From positions 1 to 13,888 of the forward strand of contig JASFVE010000050.1 in the NCBI GenBank assembly GCA_050049995.1: a DNA stretch of 13,888 bases, given 5' to 3'. Origin of the DNA: Chlamydiota bacterium (GTDB lineage: Bacteria > Chlamydiota > Chlamydiia > Chlamydiales > SM23-39). A program made the translations under genes and the position numbers. The notes beneath the pieces were generated by a model that was not told the DNA's origin, did no database searches, and saw only the letters and a list, made by a program, of their open reading frames with translations. Shown here piece by piece: positions 1 to 13,888 of the stretch. Within the stretch, counting starts at the first letter, position 1, and every line of letters begins with the position of its first letter.

Positions 1-51
1 CCCAGTCGATTTACCTCTCAATAATTGAGTTTGTCATGTTACGACACATCT

Positions 52-72
52 AGCCTCTCTTATGGAGAGGCT
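52..72. terminator. Stem-loop AGCCTCTC-ttatg-GAGAGGCT, possible terminator ~40 nt downstream of the DUF1801 gene
   Basis: Perfect 8-bp inverted repeat (52-59 / 65-72) with a 5-nt loop. There is no clear U-tract on the minus strand, so function is uncertain. Confidence 0.4.
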
Positions 73-111
73 CAATCACTTTTATTCAGAAGTTTTTATT
101 TTTACTACTAT

Positions 112-573
112 TCAAACTTCATAAGCATCCCCTTCTTTCAACTTATTTTTAATGAGATGGTATGTTAATGCTATTTTAATACAATGACGCAGCTTTTTTA
201 TATTTTCTAAAGAGATTTTATCGTTGAGATTAAAACGTATAGCTCTATTGTCTTCATACTCAAATTCTGTAGGGTATAATTTTTTAAAAGTAGGGACTAA
301 AAGTGAAGTACATTTAAAGTAAATTGCATACTGCTTTCCAAGTTTTTCTTTCCAATTGATCCTAATTGTGCTTCCATTTGTTGTAACATAACTTGGTTCA
401 CCCCATTTAAGTGTTTCCTCAACTTCTCCAACCTCTTTAGTCTTCGAGGCAACATCAAAGATCAGCTGGCGTAAAAACATCAATTTATTTCTACATTCTT
501 TAGGATAAGAAGCAAAAACAGCAGCGACTTCTGGGTTTATGAACTTTACTTGTTTCATATTTATTTTCAGCAT
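112..573 (-). CDS. DUF1801 / YdhG-like domain protein (alternative start ATG at 558, MKQVKF)
   Basis: Motifs VAAVFASYP...LRQLIFDVA...EETLKWGEPSY...GSTIRINWK...YFKCTS...NRAI...IALTYH match my recollection of the DUF1801 family. Confidence 0.8.
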   Translation of the reverse strand: MLKINMKQVKFINPEVAAVFASYPKECRNKLMFLRQLIFDVASKTKEVGEVEETLKWGEPSYVTTNGSTIRINWKEKLGKQYAIYFKCTSLLVPTFKKLYPTEFEYEDNRAIRFNLNDKISLENIKKLRHCIKIALTYHLIKNKLKEGDAYEV

Positions 574-590
574 TTAATGCTTTATAAATA

Positions 591-623
591 CTTCGTTTTA
601 AAACGAAGCAGAGAAAAATGCAA
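591..623 (-). promoter_or_regulatory. Putative sigma70-type promoter of the DUF1801 gene, overlapped by a perfect 18-bp palindrome
   Basis: Minus strand TTGCAT (623-618), 17 bp, TAAAAC (600-595). Palindrome CTTCGTTTTAAAACGAAG at 591-608. Confidence 0.45.
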
Positions 624-750
624 TATTACCCCATGCCTAAACTTATCAAAACTCAAAGTAAATAGCGCCGGAGTAGACAAAGCAAAAAAGACCTTTTTGT
701 TTCAAAAAATGACCTAAAAACTTACTTTGTGTTAAGCGAGTTAATTTAAC

Positions 751-823
751 AAAAACATTTTTTTAATTATTTACGTTTGCGTAAATCATAAAGTGACGGA
801 CCCGACTGCAACCAATTCGAACT
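751..823. repeat. Copy 1 of a tRNA-3'-end-like direct repeat (att-like); identical 23-bp core at 801-823
   Basis: CCCGACTGCAACCAATTCGAACT is identical to 2417-2439. The upstream block AAAAACATTTTTTTAATTATTTA matches 2366-2388. TGACGGA (794-800) equals 2633-2639 at the tRNA-Ser 3' end. Confidence 0.9.
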
Positions 824-829
824 CTCTCA

Positions 830-1708
830 TTAATCAACATTCGAGTCAAAATTTTGTGAAGATAAATTAGTATTTACCTGTATCCACTTATTAATGCTGG
901 AAATAATCTCTTGTAATTCATTTGGTAGAGAATGACCTGACTTAAGACCGCGAAGATAAGCTTTCCAAAAAATTTGCATGTTTTTTAATTCTTTTCCAGA
1001 AAACATTATTGGGAGTAATAAATCAGTTTGCCTATGCTCAAATACTTTTCTAACAATCTTTGATATATTTTTTAACTGATCTCCCTTTTGTAAAATCATC
1101 GCATATAGATCATGAAAATCTTTCATTCGACTATTTTTCCCTTTTCGAGAAATAATTGTCTGAATTTTTTCTGCAAAAATAAATTCCAGTGGGTAACATT
1201 TTATTTCTATGTGACTTTCAAAAATTGCTCCTTTCTTTGAGAAAGCTAAAGGAAGCTTTAATTCAATAGGCTCAACAAGATCTCCATAACCTAAATCAAT
1301 ACATACTTTAAAACGAGTTTTGCCAAAATATCCAATCATGCTAATTCTTTTTCCGGCATACTTCATATGAGAATGTAGGAGTTCCTCAATACGTACATTT
1401 TCAAATGAAAATCCATCTTTCACTCTAATTTGAGCTATTTCTTCAAAGATCTCTTTTATCTTTTTTGCGTCTTGTAGATTCTTTCTCAAACTGAAATCTA
1501 AATCTTTTGTTTCTCTTTCTATTTTTAAAATTTTTGAAAGAAGAATCCCTCCTTTAAGAATAAATTGACTAGCATGTCTAGATTGAATTAATCTTACTAA
1601 AAATCTCTCAAGAACTAAATTTTGCCATAATATCGCTGGATCAATATTTTGTTCTCGAGCAAGATTTCTAATTCTAGCTTTGAAAGCTTTTTCTATATCT
1701 TCTGTCAT
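830..1708 (-). CDS. abiEii: AbiEii/AbiGii-family nucleotidyltransferase toxin (type IV TA)
   Basis: Motifs ERFLVRL, FILKGGILL, RETKDLDF, IDLGYGD, YPLEFIFAEK, NSRMKDFHDLY. Start overlaps the antitoxin stop (ATGA, 1705-1708). Confidence 0.9.
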   Translation of the reverse strand: MTEDIEKAFKARIRNLAREQNIDPAILWQNLVLERFLVRLIQSRHASQFILKGGILLSKILKIERETKDLDFSLRKNLQDAKKIKEIFEEIAQIRVKDGFSFENVRIEELLHSHMKYAGKRISMIGYFGKTRFKVCIDLGYGDLVEPIELKLPLAFSKKGAIFESHIEIKCYPLEFIFAEKIQTIISRKGKNSRMKDFHDLYAMILQKGDQLKNISKIVRKVFEHRQTDLLLPIMFSGKELKNMQIFWKAYLRGLKSGHSLPNELQEIISSINKWIQVNTNLSSQNFDSNVD

Positions 1709-2301
1709 GTCGTCAAAGTAATAATGTATGGTTGAATATTAACTCGCAAAATTTTTGCATATTTAGATAATTTTGTAAGAGATGGATGCTGTTTAGAATC
1801 AAACAAATAAGCTTTCAAGGCTTTAATCGCTATTTCGAGACTTAAATACCGGAACGCATCAATAATACATCTTTCTTTATCAAAAATTTTTACCTTATAC
1901 TCTCCCATCATAATTTCTCTTTTCCCCAGTTCAATATTTCGCATCCGAATAATTCGTACACCTTTTCTTTTTGGTGCACGCAATTGATGAGGAACAGCTA
2001 TCCAATTTTCTCTAGGAATTTCATCAGTTAAATCATAGTACGCTAAAGCTGAGATTAAACATATTACCCCTTGAGGAATCGTAGATGAGTTAATAGCAAG
2101 CTGTTCCCAGGCAATATCTACTTTCGGTTCATAAGATCTCGATCTATATACCCCTCTAGATATTCTCTCCAAAATTCCCTTTTTGCAAAGGTAAGCCAAA
2201 ATATGTCTAGGTACGCCAATTTCTTCTGCTTGCTTTGCTGAAAACTGAGGTTTTTTTAGAAGTTTTCTTAAAGGTTGATAGTACTTTGATTTCTTTTTCA
2301 T
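1705..2301 (-). CDS. abiEi: AbiEi-family antitoxin / transcriptional regulator (198 aa from ATG 2301; the track's TTG start at 2337 lies inside the promoter)
   Basis: N-terminal wHTH-like segment FSAKQAEEIGVPRHILAYLCKKGILERISRGVY. Also GVICLISALAYYDLTDEIP and IFDKERCIIDAFRY. Lies directly upstream of and coupled to abiEii. Confidence 0.9.
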   Translation of the reverse strand: MKKKSKYYQPLRKLLKKPQFSAKQAEEIGVPRHILAYLCKKGILERISRGVYRSRSYEPKVDIAWEQLAINSSTIPQGVICLISALAYYDLTDEIPRENWIAVPHQLRAPKRKGVRIIRMRNIELGKREIMMGEYKVKIFDKERCIIDAFRYLSLEIAIKALKAYLFDSKQHPSLTKLSKYAKILRVNIQPYIITLTT

Positions 2302-2308
2302 AATTAAA

Positions 2309-2337
2309 ATTATATAAAACGCACCCAATTTAGTCAA
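2309..2337 (-). promoter_or_regulatory. Near-consensus sigma70/sigma66 promoter of the abiE operon
   Basis: Minus strand TTGACT (2337-2332), 17 bp, TATAAT (2314-2309), then 7 nt to the ATG at 2301. Confidence 0.85.
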
Positions 2338-2350
2338 TTGGGTGCGTTTT
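2316..2350. promoter_or_regulatory. Perfect 15-bp inverted repeat, probable AbiEi autorepression operator
   Basis: AAAACGCACCCAATT-tagtc-AATTGGGTGCGTTTT straddles the -35 box and spacer. AbiEi proteins are known to repress their own promoter through inverted repeats. Confidence 0.8.
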
Positions 2351-2365
2351 GGTGATTTTTAAGAA

Positions 2366-2439
2366 AAAAACATTTTTTAAGTTATTTATATTAAATGTGA
2401 TATGAAATGATGACCCCCCGACTGCAACCAATTCGAACT
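2366..2439. repeat. Copy 2 of the tRNA-3'-end-like direct repeat; identical 23-bp core at 2417-2439
   Basis: Core is identical to 801-823 and is preceded by TGAC (2411-2414). The A5-CA-T6-AA.TTATTTA block lies at the same distance (+1 nt) as in copy 1. Confidence 0.9.
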
Positions 2440-2635
2440 TTTACAGAGATCTCTATCAAAGTTCCCCCCCCTTAAAGCCAATTTATTTTAAAGTTACAGT
2501 TCAAGGTGTAAAAAACTAAAAACTTTAAGAAGAAAAAAACAGAAAAATAGCAAGAATAGTTTAAACAAACTGCAAGATAATATAGGAAATTTTTTATATT
2601 TCAGAACAAATTCATTTTACTTAATTAGATAATGA

Positions 2636-2723
2636 CGGAGGAGGTGGGATTCGAACCCACGGTACGTTTGTGGCGCACACACGCTTTCCAAGCGTGCTCC
2701 TTCGGCCGCTCGGACACTCCTCC
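2636..2723 (-). tRNA. tRNA-Ser (anticodon GGA)
   Basis: Reverse complement GGAGGAGTGTCCGAGCGGCCGAAGGAGCACGCTTGGAAAGCGTGTGTGCGCCACAAACGTACCGTGGGTTCGAATCCCACCTCCTCCG. Acceptor stem GGAGGAG/CTCCTCC, anticodon arm CACGC-TTGGAAA-GCGTG, long variable arm, T arm GTGGG-TTCGAAT-CCCAC, discriminator G. Followed by TCA rather than CCA. Confidence 0.97.
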
Positions 2724-2737
2724 AAAGAAGGGTTACA

Positions 2738-2766
2738 AGATTATCGAAAAATAAGAAAATCAGCAA
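2738..2766 (-). promoter_or_regulatory. Putative promoter of tRNA-Ser
   Basis: Minus strand TTGCTG (2766-2761), 17 bp, TAATCT (2743-2738), 14 nt upstream of the mature 5' end. Confidence 0.5.
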
Positions 2767-2873
2767 CCTTTGAAAAATAAATTACCTCTCAATAGGAGAA
2801 ATCATTAAGATGATAGACCGTTAAATGGGGAATTCTGGTTGAAAAACCGACTTTCAGGCATTATTTATTTTGT

Positions 2874-3743
2874 ATGAAAAAATATAAAAAAACATTTTAC
2901 TTCTTTTTAGCGATTTTTTTGGGTTTTTCCAGCTGCACCCCCAAAAGTACATCCATTGAAAAGCCTTCTGTTTTAGTCTCGATTGAACCTTATGCATTTT
3001 TTGTAAAAAAAATTGCAGGCGACACTCTTCAAGTGAAAACATTAATCCCCCCTAGCGCTAATGCTCATTCCTATGAGCCTACACCTAAAGAAGTAAAAGA
3101 AGCGGGAAACGCTGATGTATGGTTTCAGATTGGAGAGCCAATTGAACATGCAATTACCCCCTCTTTGCAGCAAAAAAATAAACACCTCCTCATTTATGAT
3201 GTTAAAACTGACATTGAACTTATTGGTGGGTGCTGTTTAGGGCATCATCATAAAGAAAGTAAAGACATTCATGTATGGCTAAGCCCTATCCTTATGAAAA
3301 AGCAAGCGATAGCGATGGCAAAAATTCTTATGAATAGATTTCCTGAAAACGCTTCTCTATATAAAAGAAACTTACAAAGCCTGCTTTTAGAACTAGATGA
3401 TTTGAATGATGAAATAGAAAATTTATTAAATTCCATCGAGAACAAGAAAATTCTAGTCACACATCCAGCGTTTGGTTATTTTTGCAGAGACTATAACTGT
3501 GAACAAATAGCTATTGAGTTTGAAGGGAAAGATCCCTTACCTAGACAATTAGATGAAACAGTTAAAGTTGCAAAAAATTCTCGTGTAAAACTGATCATAT
3601 CCCAACCTCAATTTTCTCAAAAAAGCGCAGAAGTCGTCTCCAGACGATTGCAACTACCTATTTATGAGTTTAACCCTTATGCAAGTGATTATATAAGCAA
3701 TATGCTCTACCTTGCTAGTTTGGTGGTGCAAAGCAATGAGTAA
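2874..3743 (+). CDS. znuA: Zn/Mn ABC transporter substrate-binding lipoprotein (ZnuA/TroA family)
   Basis: Signal peptide with lipobox-like FSSC. Metal-ligand motifs NAHSYEP, DIHVWLSP and THPAFGYF. Short His/Cys loop CCLGHHH. Confidence 0.9.
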   Translation: MKKYKKTFYFFLAIFLGFSSCTPKSTSIEKPSVLVSIEPYAFFVKKIAGDTLQVKTLIPPSANAHSYEPTPKEVKEAGNADVWFQIGEPIEHAITPSLQQKNKHLLIYDVKTDIELIGGCCLGHHHKESKDIHVWLSPILMKKQAIAMAKILMNRFPENASLYKRNLQSLLLELDDLNDEIENLLNSIENKKILVTHPAFGYFCRDYNCEQIAIEFEGKDPLPRQLDETVKVAKNSRVKLIISQPQFSQKSAEVVSRRLQLPIYEFNPYASDYISNMLYLASLVVQSNE

Positions 3744-4455
3744 AGCAATTGAAATTACCTCTTTAGACTTTGCCTATGAAACAGCCAAAATTTTAGAAGA
3801 TGTCAACCTTACTATTGAGGAAGGTTCCTATGTAGGAATTATTGGACCAAATGGTGGTGGTAAGACAACACTCCTTAAACTTATTATGGGCTTTCTACGT
3901 TATCATAAAGGATCCATTAAGCTTTTTGGTAAGCCTTCTGAAAAATTCAAAAATAGAATTGGTTATGTACCGCAAGTTAATGCGTTTGATAGAGCTTTTC
4001 CAATTACTGTCGAGGAAGTTATTTTGCAAGGGTGCCTTGCAAAATACAGTTTTTTCCAAGGCTTTAGGCAGCAAGAAATAAGCAAAGCAAACGACGCTAT
4101 ACAGCTAATGAGGCTTGATGACTTTAGAAAGACTCCATTTGGCAAGCTTTCAGGCGGGCTTGCTCAAAGAACACTCATAGCAAGAGCTCTAGCATCTGAT
4201 CCTTTGTTTCTTTTTTTTGATGAACCAACAGCAAATGTCGACACAAAAACAAAAGACATTATCTTTCAAGCTTTACACGATTTTAAAGGTAAAAAGACTA
4301 TTTTACATGTTACCCATGATCTTAATTTAGTCATCAAAGAAGTTCAACTAGTGGTTGCTGTAGAAAAAAAAGTGACTACCTACCTTCCTAAAGATGTGTG
4401 TGAACATTTTGCACTTGGACTTTATCACCCACCGCTAATAAAGGAAAAAGAATGA
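3736..4455 (+). CDS. znuC: Zn/Mn ABC transporter ATP-binding protein (start at ATG 3736, MSKAIE)
   Basis: Walker A GPNGGGKT, Q-loop GYVPQ, signature LSGG, Walker B FFDEPT, H-loop VTHD. Overlaps the znuA stop. Confidence 0.9.
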   Translation: MSKAIEITSLDFAYETAKILEDVNLTIEEGSYVGIIGPNGGGKTTLLKLIMGFLRYHKGSIKLFGKPSEKFKNRIGYVPQVNAFDRAFPITVEEVILQGCLAKYSFFQGFRQQEISKANDAIQLMRLDDFRKTPFGKLSGGLAQRTLIARALASDPLFLFFDEPTANVDTKTKDIIFQALHDFKGKKTILHVTHDLNLVIKEVQLVVAVEKKVTTYLPKDVCEHFALGLYHPPLIKEKE

Positions 4456-5291
4456 ACCTGCTGGAAATTTTTAATAGCCCATTTTTTCAAACAGCACTAC
4501 TTGCTGGACTTTTAGCCTCTATAGCTAGTGGAATGATAGGATCGTTCGTTGTAGTAAAACGCCTAGTTTTTTTATCTGGTAGTATTGCCCACTCAGTCTT
4601 AAGTGGAATGGGTCTTTTTTTATGGCTGCAAAGAAAGCATGGCATCACTTGGCTCAACCCCCTTTATGGAGCTTTTTTAGCCGCTGTTATATCTGCCCTC
4701 TTGATTGGGTGGATCCACTTAAAGTACAGACAAAGAAAGGATGCTGTCATAGCAAGTATTTGGGCATCAGGCATGGCTATTGGAGTTATTTTCATTTCTC
4801 TTACTCCAGGTTATAATGTTGAGCTTTTTAACTTTCTTTTTGGAAACATTTTATGGACGACAGCACAAGATCTTTGGATGCTTTTTGCCCTTGACTTAGC
4901 CATTTTTGCAATTGTTGCTACACAGTTTCAAAAACTACTAGCTGTTTCGTTTGACGAAGAGCAAGCTCATTTGCAAGGGATCCCTGTAAATAAACTTTAT
5001 TTTTTACTTCTTTGTCTAGTTGCAGTATCAATAGTTCTACTAGTTCAAGTTATTGGAACAATTTTAGTTATAGCTCTACTAGCTCTACCTCCTTTAATTG
5101 CCAACCTTTTCACTAACACATTAAAAAGTTTAATTGTCTTATCTATTCTTTTTTGCGCTTTTTTTAATACTTTTGGGCTAGTTCTATCCTATGAGCTAAA
5201 CTGGCCAATTGGAGCTACCATTGCACTGACCGCTACCACCAGCTATTTTATAGCATTATTTTTTGACAAAAAGAAAAAGCTGAAATTTTAA
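4452..5291 (+). CDS. znuB: Zn/Mn ABC transporter permease (ZnuB/ABC-3 family)
   Basis: Multiple TM segments. Motifs GSFVVVKR..FLSGSIAH, FLFGNIL, SFDEEQA..QGI, VQVIGTILVIALL..P. ATGA overlap with znuC. Confidence 0.9.
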   Translation: MNLLEIFNSPFFQTALLAGLLASIASGMIGSFVVVKRLVFLSGSIAHSVLSGMGLFLWLQRKHGITWLNPLYGAFLAAVISALLIGWIHLKYRQRKDAVIASIWASGMAIGVIFISLTPGYNVELFNFLFGNILWTTAQDLWMLFALDLAIFAIVATQFQKLLAVSFDEEQAHLQGIPVNKLYFLLLCLVAVSIVLLVQVIGTILVIALLALPPLIANLFTNTLKSLIVLSILFCAFFNTFGLVLSYELNWPIGATIALTATTSYFIALFFDKKKKLKF

Positions 5292-5353
5292 TGTAGTTTT
5301 ACTAGAAAGTTTACTATATTTCTTCTTCAAACAATTTTTTATGGAGCAAAATA

Positions 5354-5626
5354 ATGACACAACCAGCTAATCCCCGCCATGAGAACACTTCCCCATTTCT
5401 AGATCCTTTTGAGGACTTCACTATCAGTCTTACTCTATGTAAAGGCAAGAATGATAGTAATTTAATGACACGACTTGAAAATTCAGTCGCTGTCTTATAT
5501 GCCAGTGGAAAAGGAGCTTCTCAAAAGAAAATATTAGCAACTACTGAAAGTGTTGACCCTAAACTTGTTCCAATAGTAGAAGGCATTATACTTAATATTA
5601 TTCTCAAGGATTCTGCCCTTTCATAG
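5354..5626 (+). CDS. Small hypothetical protein (90 aa)
   Basis: ATG preceded by GGAG. Fills the gap between znuB and rplU. No motif recognised. Confidence 0.55.
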   Translation: MTQPANPRHENTSPFLDPFEDFTISLTLCKGKNDSNLMTRLENSVAVLYASGKGASQKKILATTESVDPKLVPIVEGIILNIILKDSALS

Positions 5627-5677
5627 GAAGAGACTATAAAATAATTTTTTAAGCTAGTTAAAATAACCATTTTAAAG

Positions 5678-5715
5678 GATTCTTGTTGACGAGTACAAGA
5701 ATCATCTTATAAAAT
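5678..5715 (+). promoter_or_regulatory. Putative promoter of rplU-rpmA-obg with an overlapping 9-bp inverted repeat
   Basis: TTGACG (5686-5691), 18 bp, TAAAAT (5710-5715). IR GATTCTTGT-N8-ACAAGAATC at 5678-5703. SD AGGAGG at 5733-5738. Confidence 0.6.
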
Positions 5716-5743
5716 AACTGCTCTTTGTGGTCAGGAGGACTAA

Positions 5744-6058
5744 ATGTACGCGATTATAAAAACTGGCGGGAAACAGTATAAAGTGAAAAAAGGAGATGTT
5801 ATTAATGTCGAGCTATTAGACATCTCTCCCGATCAACCAGTAGAATTTAAAGAAATTATTTTCCTAAATGATGGGAAAGAGACAAAGATAGGCCTTCCGA
5901 ACGTGGAAAATTGCATTGTTCGAGGCGAATTTATTGGTGAAACAAAAGGACCTAAAGTAATTGCTTTTAAATATAAGCGAAGAAAAAATTACCATAAGAC
6001 AAAAGGTCATCGCCAAAACTACACTCGAGTAAAAATAACCGAAATTGCACTAGGCTAA
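5744..6058 (+). CDS. rplU: 50S ribosomal protein L21
   Basis: MYAIIKTGGKQYKV...KVIAFKYKRRKNYHKTKGHRQNYTRVKI; strong SD. Confidence 0.98.
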   Translation: MYAIIKTGGKQYKVKKGDVINVELLDISPDQPVEFKEIIFLNDGKETKIGLPNVENCIVRGEFIGETKGPKVIAFKYKRRKNYHKTKGHRQNYTRVKITEIALG

Positions 6059-6068
6059 GGAGTAAAGA

Positions 6069-6329
6069 ATGGCTCATAAGAAAGGTCAAGGATCGACTAG
6101 AAACGGAAGAGACTCTCACGCAAAACGATTAGGCGTCAAAGCATCTGACGGTACATTTGTTTCTGCGGGCAGCATTATTATCAGACAAAGAGGAACCAAA
6201 TGGCATCCTTCTAGTAATGTTGGCATGGGTCGTGACTACACCATTTTTGCTCTTACAGATGGAATCGTAAAATTTCATAAAACGAAAAAAACTTACGTTT
6301 CTATTCAGCCACAAGAGCAAGTTTCATAA
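6069..6329 (+). CDS. rpmA: 50S ribosomal protein L27
   Basis: [24 protein letters not shown]...[15 protein letters not shown]...[27 protein letters not shown]. Confidence 0.98.
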
Positions 6330-6349
6330 AAAAAATATAGTTTTCAGCC

Positions 6350-7360
6350 ATGTTTGTCGATAAAGTTCAACTTCGCTTGATAGCGGGAAAAGGAGGAAAC
6401 GGCGTCGTAGCATGGCGAAGAGAAAAGTATATTCCTAAGGGTGGTCCTTCTGGCGGAGACGGCGGCAAAGGGGCCTCCATTATTATTCAAGCAGACAATC
6501 ATGTTTATTCTTTAGAAGATTACCGCAATATTAAAATTGTTCGTGCTAAAAATGGCGGGCAAGGCGGATCTAATCAAAAAAAAGGAAAAGACGGCCAAGA
6601 CAAGATTCTAAAAGTCCCTTTAGGCACTATTGTCAAAAAAATTAGTTCCAATGAAGTCCTCTATGATTTAACAGAGCATGGGCAGCAAGTTACTATCTGC
6701 TCGGGTGGTAAAGGCGGAAAAGGAAATATTCATTTTAAATCTTCTACGAATAGAGCACCTAATCAATGTACCGAGGGTACCGAGGGCGGGGAAGAGGAAA
6801 TTGAACTAGAGTTAAAACTTATTGCAGATGTTGGTTTAGTTGGCATGCCAAATGCCGGAAAATCAACCATTATTTCAAAACTTGCCAAGCTACCTGTAAA
6901 AATTGCCCCCTATCCTTTTACCACATTAACCCCTAATTTAGGGCTTGTTGAGTTTGATGATTACTCTCGTATTCTCATTGCCGACATTCCAGGAATTATC
7001 AAAGGGGCTCATCACGATAAAGGCCTTGGACTTGCTTTTTTAAAACACATTGAAAGGACAGAAGTTTTAGTTTTTGTCATTGATATTGCAGCACAAGATC
7101 AAAGAGATCCTCTACAGGACTTTCTCACTTTGCAAAATGAGCTAAAGTCTTATAATCCTAATCTATTACAAAAACCATCATTAGTCGTTCTTAATAAAAT
7201 AGATGATGAAAACAGCAACGAGTACTGCAAGCAATTTAAAAAATCTATTTCCTTAGGCAATACTCCTATACTGGAAACATCTGCTGTTAATAATATAAAT
7301 ATGGATGAGCTGAAAGAAACTATCCGAGAGCTAGCTCAAAAAAAAGGTAAAAAGTTTTAG
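6350..7360 (+). CDS. obgE: GTPase ObgE/CgtA (short form, no long C-terminal domain)
   Basis: Gly-rich Obg fold AGKGGNG..RREKYIPKGGPSGGDGG. G1 GMPNAGKST, G2 YPFTT, G3 DIPG, G4 NKID. Canonical position after rplU-rpmA. Confidence 0.97.
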   Translation: MFVDKVQLRLIAGKGGNGVVAWRREKYIPKGGPSGGDGGKGASIIIQADNHVYSLEDYRNIKIVRAKNGGQGGSNQKKGKDGQDKILKVPLGTIVKKISSNEVLYDLTEHGQQVTICSGGKGGKGNIHFKSSTNRAPNQCTEGTEGGEEEIELELKLIADVGLVGMPNAGKSTIISKLAKLPVKIAPYPFTTLTPNLGLVEFDDYSRILIADIPGIIKGAHHDKGLGLAFLKHIERTEVLVFVIDIAAQDQRDPLQDFLTLQNELKSYNPNLLQKPSLVVLNKIDDENSNEYCKQFKKSISLGNTPILETSAVNNINMDELKETIRELAQKKGKKF

Positions 7361-8226
7361 CCTTTTTTAGATGGGATTATTTTTCCCTTTTTATCCAACA
7401 ATGTTAAAACCCCTCCTAAAATCACTAAACATGCTCCTAAGAGAATTGTAATTTTTGGGACTGCATCAAAAAGAAAAAATCCTATAATCCCCCCAAATAC
7501 AATACTCATATACATTAAACAGCCAGCTTGCGTAGCAGGTATATAAGTATAAGCCTTAGTGATAAAAAACTGAAAAAACGTAGCAGCTACACCTACTCCT
7601 AAAATATAGATCCACATTTTTTCACCAAAAGGCTCCCATGTAAAAACCATCGGGAAAAAAGAAATTATAATAGAAAAAATGAAGAAATAAAAAAGAATGC
7701 TTTCTGTTTTCTCAGTTTTTGAGAGCAACCTGACACTCACCATAGCAACAGCTACAAAGAGTCCTGCACTTAAACCAATAATACTTGGAACGAGTGGAAA
7801 ATGAAGATTTGGTTCTAAAATTAGAGCAACTCCTAAAAAGCCAAGACCCAAAAAAAACATTCTTCTTTTAGGTATTTTACTTTTTATCCACAGTAAAACC
7901 ACTAGTGGAATGAAAAGAGGACTGGTATTTGCCAGCAAAATCGCATTTACTAAAGGAAGGTTTCTTACGGCATAAAAGTAAGCATAAAGACCAAGCATGC
8001 CAACGATTGCTCGAAAAGTATGCAGCTTAAATCGTTTAGTCTTTAAGCTGATCTTCTTTTTTAATAAGAAAGGCAAGAGAATAATCATGGAAACCACATT
8101 CCTAAAAAAGACCATGGCTTCAATTCTAACCTCAGGAGAAAGCTTAACCAAAGTGGCCATGATGGTATAGCTCAATGCAGCTAACAGGCCAAACAGGGAC
8201 CCAATAAAAATATCTCTTTCTTTCAT
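7357..8226 (-). CDS. EamA/DMT-family transporter
   Basis: About 10 TM segments in two repeats. Motifs MVFFRN, HTFRAIVG, YAVRNLPLVNAILLANTSPLF, TKAY. Convergent with obgE, with the stop codons overlapping. Confidence 0.88.
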   Translation of the reverse strand: MKERDIFIGSLFGLLAALSYTIMATLVKLSPEVRIEAMVFFRNVVSMIILLPFLLKKKISLKTKRFKLHTFRAIVGMLGLYAYFYAVRNLPLVNAILLANTSPLFIPLVVLLWIKSKIPKRRMFFLGLGFLGVALILEPNLHFPLVPSIIGLSAGLFVAVAMVSVRLLSKTEKTESILFYFFIFSIIISFFPMVFTWEPFGEKMWIYILGVGVAATFFQFFITKAYTYIPATQAGCLMYMSIVFGGIIGFFLFDAVPKITILLGACLVILGGVLTLLDKKGKIIPSKKG

Positions 8227-8307
8227 GCATGAAGTATACTGCTATTTATATTTCTTCATGACATTTTCCTTTCTTTAAGACAACTTTAAAGATGATCTAC
8301 GAATCGC

Positions 8308-8336
8308 TTTACCCAATTCTTTTTACCTGGTACGAT
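8308..8336 (+). promoter_or_regulatory. Putative promoter of the 8369 ORF
   Basis: TTTACC (8308-8313), 17 bp, TACGAT (8331-8336), with an extended -10 TGn. Confidence 0.45.
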
Positions 8337-8368
8337 TTCTGGCCTTTAAAAGAACAAAAGGATAAATA

Positions 8369-8929
8369 ATGGCTACACAAGCTCTTGCATATGGTATTGA
8401 AAGATCATTTTATGAAAGTACTATCTCGAAATTAAGAAATACGCATTTTCGTTATGCTGATCCAGCTGCAAGCGAGAAACTATTTTTTCCTGCTAAAGCT
8501 CTATTAACAATGGTTCAATCTATCGATCTTTCTAAGAAAGCCGCAAAACTTTTTAAAGTTAACTCTTTATTTCCCAAAATATCTAAAAGTCTTTTTTCTC
8601 AGATTACAAGTACATATTTAATTTCTCAAATTTTTTTTGATGCTATAGCTGCTTATGGAGAAGGGGCATTGAGCAATAAAAGCATACAAACGATTAGGCT
8701 AATCAGTGGAGGTTTAGATTTCTTGCGCGCTACAGCTAATGCGATTTGCGTTGTCGCTTCTATGAACTTCCCCTTCATTGTAGGATATTTTTTATTTGCT
8801 ACTTTACAAAGTGATTTAATTAGTAATGACCTTCAAGTAGCTAGCGTATCATTATCTTATGCAATTGCTGCGACCTCTATGATTATGCATGGTGGGTTTA
8901 TCTCTAGACTGCTTCCCGCAAAGTTTTAA
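8369..8929 (+). CDS. Hypothetical protein with hydrophobic C-terminal segments
   Basis: 186-aa ORF with SD AAGGA. Hydrophobic stretches AICVVASMNFPFIVGYFLFATL and VASVSLSYAIAATSMIMHGGFI. Confidence 0.65.
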   Translation: MATQALAYGIERSFYESTISKLRNTHFRYADPAASEKLFFPAKALLTMVQSIDLSKKAAKLFKVNSLFPKISKSLFSQITSTYLISQIFFDAIAAYGEGALSNKSIQTIRLISGGLDFLRATANAICVVASMNFPFIVGYFLFATLQSDLISNDLQVASVSLSYAIAATSMIMHGGFISRLLPAKF

Positions 8930-8991
8930 ATCACAAGACATTAAAGTATTAATTTGGCAATATTCCCTTTGGCACAATTAGGGGTATTGCC

Positions 8992-10341
8992 ATGAGCTTA
9001 TTTCGCGAAAAACCTTTTGCCTTCTTTATTTTACTTTTTGCAGCTTTGGGAGGACTTTTATATGGTTATGATATCGGCGTGATATCAGGTGCACTTCTTT
9101 TTATCCAAAAAGACATCCCACTTTCTACTGAACAAACGTCCCTTGTTGTTGCAGCTGTATTAGGGGGCGGGTCAATTGCCACCCTTATCTCAGGTCCAAT
9201 GGCAGATTGGATAGGAAGAAAGAAAATGATCATTTTAGCTGCTGTCATTGTCATTATTGGAACCTTACTACTAGCTGGAGCCTATAATTTTTCCTCTCTT
9301 TTATTGGGAAGACTTATTCAAGGGATAAGCATTGGCATTGTAACTATCGTAATTCCACTTTACATAGCTGAAGCAACACCTAAAAATATGCGAGGAAGAG
9401 GGCTCGCCTTATTTCAACTTATACTGACGTTGGGCATATTGCTTGCCTATGCTATAAATTTTCTTCTCGCACCCAGTGGTAACTGGAGAGGAATGTTCTA
9501 CTGTGTCCTCATACCTGGATTTACATTATTTTTAGGCTCATTATTTATACCTGAATCCCCTGTCTGGCTATTTTCTAAAGGGAAAAAATCAAAAGCAAAG
9601 AGTATTTTGCAGAAGCTGAGATTGCCAAAAGAGGCGGAAAAAGAGTTCCAGGAAATGGAAGGGTTAAAGAAAGAAACTCATGCGAGCATAGAGAAATTCA
9701 CATGGCAAAAACATTATTTCCTCCCTCTTTTTTTAGCTCTTAGCATCGGAACATTGAATCAACTTACCGGTATCAATGTCATCTTACAGTTTATTACCAT
9801 CATTTTAAAAGACTCAGGGCTTCAAACAAATTTACTTTCTTTACTGGGAAGCATAGGTATAGGCTTGATCAATTTTATTATCACAATTTTTGCTCTTGTA
9901 CTTGTTGATAAAATTGGAAGAAAGCCCCTTTTGTTAATGGGAACTGGTGGCATTGTCTTATCTCTTTTTTTTGCTGGAGTAACTTCCTTTGCCTTGGATG
10001 ATGGAACATTTAAAGGAACAATTATTTTGGTTTCGCTCGTTGGGTTTATCTGTAGTTTCGCTATTGGCCCAGGCGTTGTTGTATGGCTTGCTGTCAGCGA
10101 AATACTTCCTAATGCTTTGCGAAGCAAAGGAATGGCTGTTGCCTTATTTTTAAACTCAATCTCCTCTACTATTTACGCCTCTTTTTTCTTGTCTTTGGCT
10201 CAAAACATAGGCTTTGGAGGGATTTTTATGCTAAGCGCTACTTTTTCCCTGATATATTTTCTAATTACCTATTTTTATCTTCCTGAAACAAAACATAAAA
10301 CCTTGGAAGAAATTGAAGAAGGCTTTAGAAAAAGGATATGA
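8992..10341 (+). CDS. Sugar porter family MFS transporter (GalP/XylE-like), probable GlcNAc/glucosamine importer
   Basis: GGLLYGYDIGVISGA, ADWIGRK, YIAEATPKNMRG, PESPVWL, NQLTGINVI, VDKIGRKPLLL, LPETKHKTLEEIE. Substrate inferred from operon context. Confidence 0.92.
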   Translation: MSLFREKPFAFFILLFAALGGLLYGYDIGVISGALLFIQKDIPLSTEQTSLVVAAVLGGGSIATLISGPMADWIGRKKMIILAAVIVIIGTLLLAGAYNFSSLLLGRLIQGISIGIVTIVIPLYIAEATPKNMRGRGLALFQLILTLGILLAYAINFLLAPSGNWRGMFYCVLIPGFTLFLGSLFIPESPVWLFSKGKKSKAKSILQKLRLPKEAEKEFQEMEGLKKETHASIEKFTWQKHYFLPLFLALSIGTLNQLTGINVILQFITIILKDSGLQTNLLSLLGSIGIGLINFIITIFALVLVDKIGRKPLLLMGTGGIVLSLFFAGVTSFALDDGTFKGTIILVSLVGFICSFAIGPGVVVWLAVSEILPNALRSKGMAVALFLNSISSTIYASFFLSLAQNIGFGGIFMLSATFSLIYFLITYFYLPETKHKTLEEIEEGFRKRI

Positions 10342-11225
10342 AAAAAGATATTTTTATAGGGCTAGATGGTGGAGGCACCAAAACTAAGCTTCTTATAGAA
10401 GATGCAAAAGGCAACCTTCTAGGAAGTGCTAGGGCAGGACCTGCTAACATTCGCTTATCGGTAAGTCAGGCATGGGATTCTATTTTTCATGCTCTACATA
10501 GTGCCTTGAGGCAAGCAAAAATTGAAATTGATGACCCAACTATTAATCTGCATGCCGGCATGGGACTTGCGGGAACAGAAATCCCATTTGCCTGCAAAGA
10601 TTTTTTAGAAAAACCCCATCCTTTTAAAAGTATTTGTCTTCGATCAGATGCTTTTACAGCTTGTCTAGGAGCCCATAATGGTCAGGATGGAGATATCATT
10701 ATTATTGGGACAGGTGTTATTGGGTATCAGATTTTTGAAAATGCAGAGTCACAGGTAAATGGCTGGGGCTTTCCTCATGCTGATGAAGGTGGAGGCGCAT
10801 GGCTTGGCATGCAAGCTATTCGGAAAACCCTGCAATGGCAAGACGGCAGAGGAGATAAAAGTTCTATGTTAGAAGCTATCTTTGATCACTTTAACAACAA
10901 TTTAAATGAAATGGTTGTATGGGCAAATGAGGCAAAGTCTACGAACTTTGCAGAACTTGCCTTGATTGTCACGCAATTTTTAGAGGAAAATGACCCTATT
11001 TCCTTAGAGCTTTTACAACTTGCCGGAAATGAAATAAACAAAGTTGGCTCAGCATTAGAAAAATTTTCCCATAAGCCTCTGCCTTGTTCTTTATTTGGAG
11101 GCATTGCAAATTTTATCATACCCTTTTTAAGTGACAGTCTTAAAAGTAGAATAAAAGAAAGGTTAAATGATGCTCCCAAAGGAGCTATTTTCATGATACG
11201 AAAGCAGGTTTTAGGAGAAAAATGA
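10338..11225 (+). CDS. BadF/BadG/BcrA/BcrD-type sugar kinase, probable N-acetylglucosamine/glucosamine kinase
   Basis: IGLDGGGTKT, GPANI, GMGLAG, SDAFTACLGAH, IIIGTG, GWGFPHADEGGGAWLG. ATGA-coupled to both neighbours. Confidence 0.85.
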   Translation: MKKDIFIGLDGGGTKTKLLIEDAKGNLLGSARAGPANIRLSVSQAWDSIFHALHSALRQAKIEIDDPTINLHAGMGLAGTEIPFACKDFLEKPHPFKSICLRSDAFTACLGAHNGQDGDIIIIGTGVIGYQIFENAESQVNGWGFPHADEGGGAWLGMQAIRKTLQWQDGRGDKSSMLEAIFDHFNNNLNEMVVWANEAKSTNFAELALIVTQFLEENDPISLELLQLAGNEINKVGSALEKFSHKPLPCSLFGGIANFIIPFLSDSLKSRIKERLNDAPKGAIFMIRKQVLGEK

Positions 11226-12265
11226 CAACGCAAATGGAACTTGAAGCAAAAGAATCTCCTCAAAAAATAGAACTACAGCTTCAAGAAAACCATGCAATGC
11301 TGTCAAAAATAGCCTCTTATATCAAAAAGAAAAACCCCGCCTTTGCTCTTACTATGGCAAGAGGAAGCTCTGCTTATGCAGCTCTTTACCTTAAATATCT
11401 TTTAGAAAACAAGCTAGGCCTTATAACTTCTTCTCAACAACTAAGTACAGTAAGTATCTATCAATCTCCTCTTGAATTACGACATGCATTAGCTATTGCA
11501 ATATCACAATCAGGAAAAAGCCCTGACATATGTGAAAACATACGCTATGCAAAAAAAAAAGGAGCGTTGACCTTATGCTTTGTCAATGATGTAAACTCTC
11601 CGCTTGCCAAAGAAGCCGAATTAGTTGTTCCTCTTTTTGCAGGGCAAGAAAAAGCAGTTGCTGCTACGAAAAGCTTTTTAACCTCCTTAAGCGCAGCTAT
11701 GCATATGGTAGCCGAACTTGCGGAAGATAAATTGCTTTTAAGATCACTGCAAAAAATACCTCAAGCAATGGAGAATACTCTTCAAGTTAATCCATCTGCT
11801 CTTATCAAAGCGTTCGCTAAAGTCAATAATTTATTTGTCTTAGCAAGAGGTTTTTCCCATCCTATTGCCATGGAAGCTGCTTTAAAATTTAAAGAAACAT
11901 GTTCTATTCATGCTGAAGGATTCAGTTCCGCAGAAGTTTTGCATGGTCCTTTTGCTCTAGTAAAAAAAGATTTTCATGCTCTTTTATTTGCTCAAAATGA
12001 CGTTTCATTAACAACTACTATGGCAATTTGTAAGAAAATTCAAAAAGCGAAAGGGACAACCTTTTTAATTACGAATGAAACACATTCTAAAATGATACAT
12101 AACTGTGCTGATAAAGTGCTCATGGTTCCTAAAAGCATTCACCCTGTATGTGACCCTCTGATGTATTTGCAACTGTTATACCCCTTTTTTGCAAAGCTAG
12201 CTGTAAAAAAAGGGATAGATCCAGACAACCCACAAAACTTGCAAAAAGTTACTGAAACACTATGA
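11222..12265 (+). CDS. SIS-domain glucosamine-6-phosphate deaminase (NagB-II type; GlmS isomerase-domain homologue without the glutaminase domain)
   Basis: ARGSS, ISQSGKSPD, AGQEKAVAATKSF, EAALKFKET, AEVLHGP, C-terminal DPDNPQNLQKVTETL. Confidence 0.85.
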   Translation: MTTQMELEAKESPQKIELQLQENHAMLSKIASYIKKKNPAFALTMARGSSAYAALYLKYLLENKLGLITSSQQLSTVSIYQSPLELRHALAIAISQSGKSPDICENIRYAKKKGALTLCFVNDVNSPLAKEAELVVPLFAGQEKAVAATKSFLTSLSAAMHMVAELAEDKLLLRSLQKIPQAMENTLQVNPSALIKAFAKVNNLFVLARGFSHPIAMEAALKFKETCSIHAEGFSSAEVLHGPFALVKKDFHALLFAQNDVSLTTTMAICKKIQKAKGTTFLITNETHSKMIHNCADKVLMVPKSIHPVCDPLMYLQLLYPFFAKLAVKKGIDPDNPQNLQKVTETL

Positions 12266-13428
12266 CAAGGTTTTTAATTCAGGGACTCAAAGTTTATACA
12301 GAAACAAAAGTGTTAAAGCAAGGGGGTGTCTTAATTGAAGATGGGGTAATTCAAGAAATTTTCACGCATGATCAATTACAAAAGTTTTGTGAAAAAACCA
12401 CGTATCACTTTCCCGCCAATTATCATTTAGTCCCTGGATTTATTGACCTTCATATTCACGGGGCAAATGGCTCTGATGTAATGGATAATAGTATTGATGC
12501 ACTTCAAAATATTTGCATAAGCCTTCCTAAAGAAGGTACAACTAGCTTTTTAGCAACTACTTTGTCACAGCCAAAAGCTAAAATAGAAGAAGTATTACAG
12601 ACAATTAGCCGCGCCACTGCTTTAAAAGGAGCTGAAATTCTAGGAGTTCACCTAGAAGGGCCTTTTTTGTCTTTTGAAAAACCCGGAGCACATGAGCCCT
12701 CTTATTTTTTAGATCCAGACATTCCCCTTTTTGATAGGTGGCAAACTCTTTCTGGAGATAAAATAAAGGTTGTAACTGTAGCTCCCGAGAAAAAGAATGG
12801 CATAGAGTTTATTCAGCATTTAAAAAAGAAAAATGTAACAGCATCTATTGGTCATAGTTATGCAAGTTATGAAAAAGCTATTGAAGCTATTGAAGCAGGA
12901 TCTTCTTACGCAACACATCTTTTTAATGCAATGACACCTATACATCAAAGAAATCCTGGATGTTCTATAGCCTGTCTTTTACATAATCATATCAGTGCAG
13001 AAATCATAGCAGACGGGGTGCATTTACATGGAGCTATGATCCATCTCACCTACCAAGTTAAAGGTCCAGACCTTGTCTTGCTTGTTACAGATGCCATGAG
13101 AGCTAAATGCATGCCTGCAGGAGAATATACTTTAGGTGATAAGACTGTAACCGTTAACAAAGAAATGGCCACTTTAAAAGATGGGACTATAGCTGGAAGC
13201 ATTTTAAAAATGGATCAGGCATTTAGAAATGTCTATAAATATTTAAATTGTCCCATAGAACATATGATAAAAATGTGCTCGACCAATCCCGCAAAAATAG
13301 CTCGCGTATTTGATAGGAAAGGCAGCATTACTAAAGGTAAAGAAGCCGATCTTGTCATTTTAGACGAAGACTTGGAACCAATTCTCACCTTATGCAAGGG
13401 GGAAGCTGTTTTTGAAAAAAAAACTTGA
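12262..13428 (+). CDS. nagA: N-acetylglucosamine-6-phosphate deacetylase
   Basis: PGFIDLHIHG, GVHLEGPFL, GAH, GHS, THLFNAM, IADGVH, LVTDAM, IAGS, NPA...GSITKGKEADLV. Confidence 0.95.
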   Translation: MTRFLIQGLKVYTETKVLKQGGVLIEDGVIQEIFTHDQLQKFCEKTTYHFPANYHLVPGFIDLHIHGANGSDVMDNSIDALQNICISLPKEGTTSFLATTLSQPKAKIEEVLQTISRATALKGAEILGVHLEGPFLSFEKPGAHEPSYFLDPDIPLFDRWQTLSGDKIKVVTVAPEKKNGIEFIQHLKKKNVTASIGHSYASYEKAIEAIEAGSSYATHLFNAMTPIHQRNPGCSIACLLHNHISAEIIADGVHLHGAMIHLTYQVKGPDLVLLVTDAMRAKCMPAGEYTLGDKTVTVNKEMATLKDGTIAGSILKMDQAFRNVYKYLNCPIEHMIKMCSTNPAKIARVFDRKGSITKGKEADLVILDEDLEPILTLCKGEAVFEKKT

Positions 13429-13498
13429 AAACCTTCTTTAAGTTGCATAATAACGACTATATAACTATTTTTTTATTTAAACTAGTCAAGGTACTCAA

Positions 13499-13888
13499 TT
13501 GAAAGTCACGGCCATTGTTCCCTGTTATAATGTAGAGAAATATTGCCGAAATGTTATTGAAAAAACGTTAGATCATTGCAGTTTTATTGTTCTTATTGAC
13601 GATGGTTCCACAGATCAGACTAATAAAATTCTTCAAGAGCTACAATCCTCAAATAGTCAGAAGATTCACTTAATTACCTTTCCTCAAAACCAAGGGAAAG
13701 GGATAGCTTTACTGGAAGGAATAAAGTATGCCTTATCAGATACTTCTTTTGACGCCCTTGTTACCATTGATTCTGATGGGCAGCATCTTCCTTCAGAAAT
13801 TCCCAAGCTTGTCTCATGCATCCAAGAAGGTTCAAGCTTAGTTATTGGTAGCAGAGATTTTACAAAAATCCCCTTTAGAAGACGCCTA
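13499..13888 (+). CDS. Glycosyltransferase family 2 (DPM1/polyprenol-phosphate glycosyltransferase-like), 5' part, runs off the window
   Basis: Not in the ORF track. Translated by hand from TTG 13499: MKVTAIVPCYNVEKY...LIDDGSTDQT...NQGKGIAL...VTIDSDGQHLPSEIPKL...LVIGSR. Open to the window end. Confidence 0.9.
   Translation, partial: MKVTAIVPCYNVEKYCRNVIEKTLDHCSFIVLIDDGSTDQTNKILQELQSSNSQKIHLITFPQNQGKGIALLEGIKYALSDTSFDALVTIDSDGQHLPSEIPKLVSCIQEGSSLVIGSRDFTKIPFRRRL

Follow-up and report, generated by a model that had tools for sequence, protein, structure and literature searches.

Putative attR sites of a tRNA-Ser-targeting serine recombinase family bracket an AbiE operon in a Chlamydiota genome

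Genomic islands arranged in tandem behind a tRNA-like 3' end are known from Dehalococcoides, where the ssrA islands were built by accretion (DsiB; excerpt of PMC3146451), and a similar stacking is seen in the tycheposon islands, which mostly carry tyrosine integrases (excerpt of 10.1101/2020.12.28.424599). As regards serine integrases, the part of the 2014 island database paper drawn on here (PMC4383910) describes them as not known to target tRNA genes and excludes this class of target for them, and the word 'tRNA' does not occur in the main text of PMC10083194. Here we analyse a 13,888-nucleotide stretch of a Chlamydiota genome (assembly GCA_050049995.1, contig JASFVE010000050.1, positions 1 to 13,888; hereafter the window), in which an operon for the toxin-antitoxin (TA) system AbiE lies between two copies of a repeat close to a tRNA-Ser(GGA) gene. 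An initial annotation made from the sequence alone had taken this arrangement for an integron-like stack of cassettes. We present strong support for a different assignment, in which the repeats belong to attR sites of a family of large serine recombinases (LSRs) targeting the ends of tRNA-Ser genes.

The source assembly (G000; 1,881,569 bases in 122 contigs, 98% complete) carries the window on its contig C50. Throughout, G, C, L, X (X1-X4) and P followed by a number denote comparison genomes, contigs, fetched loci, contig runs and proteins, respectively; G001 belongs to the same genus as G000, and G294 to another genus of the same family. Site coordinates follow window numbering, and attachment-site motifs are read on the tRNA (minus) strand. 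The repeats themselves were described correctly at the outset. Two identical copies of a 23-bp core occupy 801-823 and 2417-2439, 1,616 bp apart; TGAC precedes both cores (794-797 with a 3-nt gap at copy 1, 2411-2414 with a 2-nt gap at copy 2), and the sites have an AT block in common (751-778 and 2366-2393) whose likeness lies above that of shuffled sequences (score 39.5 versus 22.8 ± 4.2, 0 of 300 shuffles; 0 of 200 in a second test). The AT-block motif is scarce in G000, with 16 matches at 1 mismatch on both strands and none in 34 tRNA flanks. A search of the whole assembly for the core left both copies standing and returned no further one at up to 4 mismatches, and an independently assembled contig from run X1, possibly the source sample, covers 656-2702 with 0 differences. 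The abiE genes, the DUF1801 gene, the putative operator and tRNA-Ser(GGA) all lie on the minus strand, as had been claimed (Pfam, PADLOC, promoter match).

Each window site shares with the tRNA end the motif GTTCGAAT and, in copy 1 only, TCCGTCA; between these motifs stand 14 unrelated bases instead of 9, so that the earlier description as tRNA-3'-like direct repeats has to be given up. Counted from GTTCGAAT to the central TC, the spacing is thus 9 nt in the tRNA and 14 nt in the window sites, and a 5-bp displacement of the zinc-ribbon (ZD) motif is what sets attP apart from attB in serine integrases (excerpt of PMC3783163). Many arm-matching loci carry a mirror copy of the arm after a tRNA-Ser end. 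The fetched loci, a search-enriched set, contain 55 distinct tRNA-Ser ends, 19 of which have this mirror arm exactly 14 nt past the TC, and the full palindrome (motif, 14 nt, TC, 14 nt, motif) occurs at 11 sites, found with a pattern that required this spacing. A centre of the TC type is kept in 68 of 74 P arms, site 1 of the window having TC and site 2 GG, and the centre tracks the target, being CC in both the target and the sites of a tRNA-Asp array (L042). Filled and empty alleles are joined at this centre: G001 shows a P arm, TC and a flank, and the same flank is found directly behind tRNA-Ser(GCT) on C48 of G000, with a 2-nt indel right of the TC, while a duplicated flank in L101 is identical from the TC onward. 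Relatives also supply the cognate LSR, the attL and the palindromic attP. Because motif geometry, partner arms, cognate LSRs, the filled/empty pair and the target-tracking centre agree, sequence comparison strongly supports reading the window cores as P arms of attR sites.

The initial annotation is therefore supported in placing recombination junctions of tRNA-Ser-targeting elements here, given the attL, attP and LSR partners and the filled/empty pairs in relatives, and its term attP-like has to be replaced by attR-type, each site consisting of a P arm and a right arm that is not P'. The right halves of the window sites score -13 or less with a P' profile at six offsets, versus at least 16.5 for 30 of 31 P' arms, which ruled out the decayed P' arms suspected there by eye. 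A dif/Xer-like reading of the AT block was dropped once the attL and attP partners emerged, and a non-coding RNA was rejected at both sites, neither of which has an Rfam match. Other site forms were also observed. The complete element of G156 has an outer site (L112:224) whose P arm is a hybrid: tRNA-like bases stand close to the centre, and a further copy of the motif follows 3 nt to the right of the centre. In L096 and L097 part of the tRNA-Ser end is present a second time, broken by hairpin-like repeats, and the attL lies on this partial copy.

The 22-nt arm pattern was found in 8 of 301 genomes of the order and an exact 15-mer of the arm in 17 of 401 genomes of the phylum, compared with 1 control match. 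A 20-mer recovered 21 genome loci in Chlamydiota, Omnitrophota, Planctomycetota and Myxococcota as well as 37 metagenome stretches; three viral-contig matches of a 16-mer were discarded as not att-like. Records labelled Chlamydiae are among those with the arm, and the closest recombinases bear that name too, in line with the placement of the host in Chlamydiota. The LSR family comprises 641 proteins at E <= 1e-50 and was not found in viral contigs or in the plasmids searched. Full-length LSRs with Resolvase, Recombinase and Zn-ribbon domains are encoded beside the tRNA-side junction in L063, L064 and L057, where their genes run into the tRNA, and full-length LSR genes read across attL into tRNA-Ser in L063/L112, L064/L123, L117, L118 and L148, with the attR 4.5-9 kb from the LSR-bearing attL in L112, L148 and L123. 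L112 represents a complete 6.4-kb element with restriction-modification (RM) cargo. Further elements were noted alongside these: one contig (L157 and L130) has an empty tRNA-Ser(TGA), a 143-nt spacer, attP, a full LSR gene, type I RM genes and an attR ~19 kb further on; in L203 (C38 of G169) tRNA-Ser(GGA) is the site of another element, of 8 kb, whose LSR gene is broken and whose cargo presumably consists of large enzyme genes; and other LSR clades of the order read likewise into the ends of tRNA-Asn, tRNA-Leu, tRNA-Tyr and tmRNA genes (L070-L091). The recombinase had been predicted to be encoded outside the window, and none of the LSR type was found anywhere in the G000 assembly, which yielded no PF07508 or PF00239 match and, in tblastn with the cognate LSR, only the read-through of the tRNA.

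Each arm opens a plus-strand frame that starts RLQPIRT. This frame stays open for at least 55 codons in 43 of 63 arms, whereas each of the other two does so in only 4 or 5 arms. An in-frame ATG within 25 codons is present in just 11 of 53 attR-type arms. The encoded peptide is conserved across AT-rich to GC-rich hosts and was modelled as three helices (pLDDT 82); its Pfam helix-turn-helix (HTH) matches fall below cut-off, and a fold search of the model returned only HTH proteins, at E > 0.4. As the tail frame is in phase with the LSR end at attP junctions, excision is predicted to provide the LSR with a DNA-binding, HTH-like tail of ~60 aa that would exist only in the attP state. Among the 120 best LSR homologues, 62 have a tRNA-antisense tail at the C-terminus, 46 stop at the site, 10 finish in another way and 2 carry attP-type tails, one of them (P0082) with the whole HTH-like domain. 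In the window the tail frame is reduced to 18 codons at each site, and nhmmer found no HTH-coding remnant beyond these in the window, the 190-bp spacer included; a weak nhmmer match on C14 turned out to be a coding junction. At site 1 the last 10 codons of abiEii overlap the element terminus, which suggests that the gene was captured through an imprecise junction and does not stop at a precise cassette end. Homologues of abiEii end or diverge near residue 282.

Stacks of short units without a recombinase at tRNA-Ser, as envisaged initially, do recur in other genomes. Two P arms occur in 8 of 65 non-redundant arm loci, this one included, at spacings of 1616, 1974, 1860, 1904, 1710, 4005, 1963 and 1839 bp, and two further tandem loci were missed by the filter (L123, 738 bp; L153, 1663 bp), giving nine besides the window; as the loci span 1-20 kb, this count is a floor. 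The tandem arms enclose units of 1-2 genes, and the P-to-P interval measures 1.6-2.0 kb in 8 of 10 cases. In the closest parallel (L129), tRNA-Ser(GGA) is followed by attL, an AbiE pair, attR, a second AbiE pair and attR. There the genes face the tRNA and, more generally, gene orientation differs between arrays, so the co-orientation with the tRNA noted initially is not a fixed feature of such units. TA, defence-like or ATPase genes are frequent as cargo, and other units hold RhuM, YhcG, Schlafen-like, AAA-DUF4143 and methyltransferase genes. A survey of 29 loci, picked for having a tRNA or two arms, contained full elements, attL with a truncated LSR remnant (L024, L094, L098, L100, L125), attL-cargo-attR arrangements without LSR (L044, L099, L129, L131) and empty tRNAs with an attR (L025, L050, L054, L101, L162), the P arm lying 143 to 7,738 nt from the empty tRNA across the survey. 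Behind the outer arm the tRNA flank is duplicated, over 84 nt starting from the centre in L101 and over 527 nt in L131. The gene-less innermost unit of the window has counterparts in tRNA-to-P-arm units of 143 nt (L157) and 185 nt (L155).

The best reading of the array is accretion of recombinase-less, possibly cis-mobilisable units, and not an integron. More specifically, we consider it probable that the two repeats are attR scars of earlier insertions that lost their recombinase-bearing inner ends, leaving the AbiE operon stranded between them. In such a mechanism, the LSR would integrate a circle, whose attP consists of a 14-bp arm, TC and a second 14-bp arm, at the TC just before the last bases of the tRNA, with the T-loop motif of the tRNA repeated at the end of each attP arm. 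Since the tRNA-proximal end is where the LSR gene sits, deletions or filled/empty hybrids would remove this gene along with the P' arm; loss of the inner end would keep the cargo beside attR and restore the empty target, and repeated insertion and loss would build up a stack in which newer insertions land upstream. In the window, a unit bounded by att sites but lacking a recombinase gene stands in a tandem arrangement at an integration site, and tRNA-Ser(GGA) is an empty target with no P' arm behind it. No P' arm is present elsewhere in the window either, and hence no functional pair of attL and attR from which a cis-mobilisable unit could be recognised. The array would be inert in G000 until a newly inserted element supplied enzyme and attL; recombination of this new attL with the intact site 1 could then carry off a 1,839-bp segment including AbiE (cis-mobilisation). 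Persistence of the segment is probably aided by the TA pair. A 1,616-bp AbiE circle, as initially anticipated, is unlikely because recombination of site 1 with site 2 needs a non-standard pairing and the centres mismatch, site 2 being without TC. No circle or empty-site joint was seen in the four contig runs; the locus is covered in X1 alone, by one contig across both sites, while X2-X4 yielded short pieces, and contigs drop rare forms.

Related genomes bear on the history of the locus. At the tRNA-Ser(GGA) of G001, 29 of 32 flanking bases match G000 and an ankyrin-like gene follows, with no AbiE, DUF1801 or arms. DUF1801 has a counterpart in 1 of 102 other genomes of the family, G294 (79% aa and 81% DNA identity), where it stands directly behind tRNA-Ser(GGA) after a 100-nt spacer, with neither arm nor AbiE. 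In comparison with G001, the G000-specific stretch starts 32 nt past the TC. No P arm lies on the far side of DUF1801 in the window or in G294, so that DUF1801 is at most a candidate cassette. The 100-nt spacer of G294 contains two copies of the AT-block motif, inverted relative to each other; a 27-nt match of the site-2 block to G294, considered as native flank, was rejected because it lies on the opposite strand, and homology of window 590-750 to the G001 tRNA flank is not above shuffles (154 of 300). AbiEii homologues are present in 83 of 301 genomes, the best being 55% identical, and P arms were found at 0 of 32 AbiE homologue loci (29 best plus 3 earlier, with ~1.5 kb of flank for most), which speaks against AbiE as a travelling cassette. 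Likewise, none of the fetched loci repeats a window unit with identical boundaries. G001 has its own, armless AbiE pair on C12 (L023), where C28 of G000 has an unrelated 2.2-kb stretch. The ankyrin-like gene of G001 (by eye; L021:3612-5819) encodes 735 aa, and G000 keeps only its second half, at the end of C49; C49 and C50 probably join across a gap.

Several points weigh against accretion with stranding of AbiE. The boundary against G001 at 32 nt beyond the tRNA's TC does not coincide with the crossover, the block may have been imported as a single piece, and any order of events is tentative. The evidence consists of sequence comparison with relatives, none conspecific, from which recombination is inferred rather than observed. 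Compared in the same orientation, the AT block resembles the G294 flank modestly (site 1, 7 of 500 shuffles; site 2, 34 of 500), the best match being inverted (1 of 500). The flanks of the two P arms have diverged but the arms themselves show no difference over 23 nt, and this identity may reflect selection on the arms rather than decay. Finally, with an assembly in 122 contigs and C50 ending at window position 1, an LSR gene may sit in a gap.

Rather unlikely, in our estimation, is an active LSR cassette system, in which units made of B' flank, cargo and P arm would leave as attR circles and re-enter at the tRNA or an attL, with one recombinase shuffling defence units in trans. The circles would arise by attB x downstream attP, or by non-canonical attB x attR or attR x attR recombination. 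The clustering of unit sizes fits such a system, as do the frequent TA, defence-like or ATPase cargo, the states 'empty tRNA - unit - attP' in L140 and L157, the start of the L101 flank duplication exactly at the centre, and the first unit common to L140 and L162 (89%), two loci that differ right of the next TC. Ccr enzymes reportedly (Misiura, 2013) accept non-canonical site pairs. Ccr also excises tandem cassettes resembling the staphylococcal cassette chromosome (SCC) in all combinations (excerpt of PMC11470126), but classical serine integrases are productive only for attP x attB and attL x attR (excerpt of PMC3783163). The missing TC of site 2, the armless AbiE homologue loci, the lack of any window unit with recurring boundaries in the fetched loci or of a circle joint in the contigs, and the tail frame worn down to 18 codons at both arms count against active cassettes as well, and the idea keeps the standing it has because of the 'empty tRNA - unit - attP' states and the clustered sizes. 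Doubtful, too, is a broader proposal, namely that Chlamydiota and other phyla possess an analogue of the integron run by a serine recombinase, in which one tRNA-Ser-targeting LSR would move its own island and shuffle single-P-arm defence cassettes via attR circles, the HTH tail acting as a direction switch in place of a directionality factor.

We think it distinctly unlikely that the whole block of site 2, AbiE, site 1 and DUF1801 came in one piece from another chlamydia, by a composite island or homologous recombination. The offset of 32 nt against G001 and the 81% DNA identity of DUF1801 to the gene at the same tRNA in another genus fit such an import, but it only shifts the question to the donor, where accretion is still required, and no donor genome carrying the block was found. 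Duplicates of the tRNA 3' end made by a tyrosine integrase or an integron-type system are very improbable: site and tRNA end do have GTTCGAAT and TCCGTCA in common, and G000 does contain 3 PF00589 genes, one adjoining tRNA-Ser(TGA) on C17, yet the 14 bases between the motifs are not tRNA sequence, the partner genes of the arm are serine recombinases, the tyrosine island of C17 leaves instead a true 54-nt tRNA copy on C52, and the sites have no Rfam family and, among the inverted repeats listed, no attC-type hairpin. That tyrosine integrase gene (L061) and the partial tRNA copy at C52:6637-6689 represent a separate, conventional island, and a similar partial copy is found on C55 of G001. An assembly artefact or a chance or local duplication, for which one could cite the metagenome-assembled origin and the nearby contig end, is practically negligible given the independent contig spanning both copies and the occurrence of the arm in 17 of 401 phylum genomes, against 1 control match, and in other phyla.

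The features of the locus are collected in Table 1. The AbiE genes form an abiEi-abiEii operon with nucleotidyltransferase motifs and an upstream inverted repeat, as in type IV TA systems, toxin activity being predicted. The inverted repeat is presumed to be an operator, in keeping with AbiE biology. Between the end of the -10 box and the abiEi ATG there are 7 nt (2301-2314), so the AbiE transcript may be leaderless. Elsewhere in the window, a perfect 18-bp palindrome is located at 591-608, upstream of DUF1801, and a hairpin read from the sequence at 52-72, downstream of it. The stretch from 2874 to 13428 holds housekeeping-looking genes, including ZnuA (Pfam); the remainder are presumably its ABC partners, ribosomal protein and GTPase genes, a sugar transporter and an amino-sugar cluster. 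The open reading frames at 5354-5626 and 8369-8929 have no Pfam match.

Table 1. Coordinates of the features at the tRNA-Ser(GGA) locus, in window numbering
Feature	Position	Strand	Remarks
DUF1801 gene	112..573	-	PF08818 E 4.8e-10; outermost accessory gene
B'-type right flank of site 1, with AT block	751..798	-	fails P' score; resembles site-2 flank and G294 tRNA-to-DUF1801 spacer (7/500 shuffles)
Central dinucleotide TC of site 1, putative crossover	799..800	-	14 nt from GTTCGAAT, as in palindromic attP of relatives
P arm, putative attR site 1, intact	801..823	-	GTTCGAAT motif at 815-822
18-codon remnant of attP-state tail frame	803..859	+	HMM of 46 tails E 6.1e-5; antisense to last 10 abiEii codons
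abiEii, type IV TA nucleotidyltransferase toxin (predicted)	830..1708	-	PF08843 E 1.3e-36; PADLOC AbiEii E 8.5e-72
abiEi, antitoxin/autorepressor	1705..2301	-	PF13338 E 3.5e-10; PADLOC AbiEi E 1.3e-77
Inverted repeat (presumed operator) and sigma70-type promoter	2304..2362	-	-35 at 2337-2332, -10 at 2314-2309; 11/12 promoter match
B'-type right flank of site 2, with AT block	2366..2414	-	fails P' score; resembles site-1 flank
Damaged centre of site 2	2415..2416	-	GG replaces TC; site 2 is shorter by 1 nt
P arm, putative attR site 2	2417..2439	-	second identical 23-bp copy
18-codon remnant of attP-state tail frame	2419..2475	+	HMM of 46 tails E 0.013
Gene-less innermost unit	2440..2637	.	2606-2637 common to G001 tRNA flank, 29/32 nt identical, unrelated beyond
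tRNA-Ser(GGA)	2634..2724	-	3' end = empty attB: TC 2638-2639, GTTCGAAT 2649-2656

The locus looks like a relic, yet it defines the full set of attB, attP, attL and attR for a large LSR family that appears to target tRNA-Ser ends by mimicry of the T-loop. As insertion leaves no tRNA duplicate, such elements are not visible to island tools that rely on tRNA duplicates, and no displaced tRNA fragment of the Islander type forms a direct repeat at the window sites. The locus also illustrates how defence and TA genes may accumulate in environmental chlamydiae, and both a possible control of direction by a recombination-dependent HTH tail and a possible movability of single-arm units are open to direct test. 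A full-text search, which included few subscription papers, returned no published description of this LSR family, its att sites or its arrays, nor of an att site within a serine integrase gene.

Among described systems, integron cassette arrays resemble the window as stacks of short units with TA cargo under its own promoter. The likeness to integrons proposed initially does not extend further, the enzyme of the family being an LSR and orientation not being fixed. There is no IntI in the window, and the 3 PF00589 genes on other contigs of G000 were not typed as IntI; no attC-like inverted repeat was among those listed for either site and Rfam gave no match, no dedicated attC model having been run. 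The Int protein of Myxococcus phage Mx8 is a tyrosine integrase. Its attP lies inside the integrase gene and integration swaps the C-terminus, as here (excerpt of PMC6070905), whereas in the window family it is a serine recombinase that would gain an HTH-like tail of ~60 aa. With the large serine integrases of phages (A118/LI, phiC31, Bxb1; excerpt of PMC3783163) the family has in common the ZD motif shifted by 5 bp, the central dinucleotide and the Resolvase-Recombinase-Zn-ribbon architecture; it differs in that the att site lies inside the integrase gene and in being carried by small islands, which were not found in viral contigs or plasmids. Composite SCC elements (CcrAB/CcrC; excerpts of PMC11470126 and PMC13739063) likewise have LSR-made att sites in tandem behind a conserved gene end and contain ccr-less, defence-rich units mobilised by a neighbour's recombinase. 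SCC differ in their rlmH target, the Ccr enzymes and cassettes of tens of kb, in contrast to a tRNA target, another LSR clade and predicted mobilisation here; no rlmH target is involved at the window, nor was a serine recombinase found in G000. The ssrA islands of Dehalococcoides, in turn, match the window family in that the 3' end of a serine recombinase gene overlaps attL and many units are without an integration module and have been read as cis-mobilisable (excerpt of PMC3146451). They use the T-loop of tmRNA as target, with a 20-bp direct repeat of it, as opposed to the TC before the last bases of tRNA-Ser, without such a repeat, and the family described here is further set apart by a single LSR with no DsiA-type module seen, by units of 0.2-2 kb and by the HTH-like tail encoded across attP.

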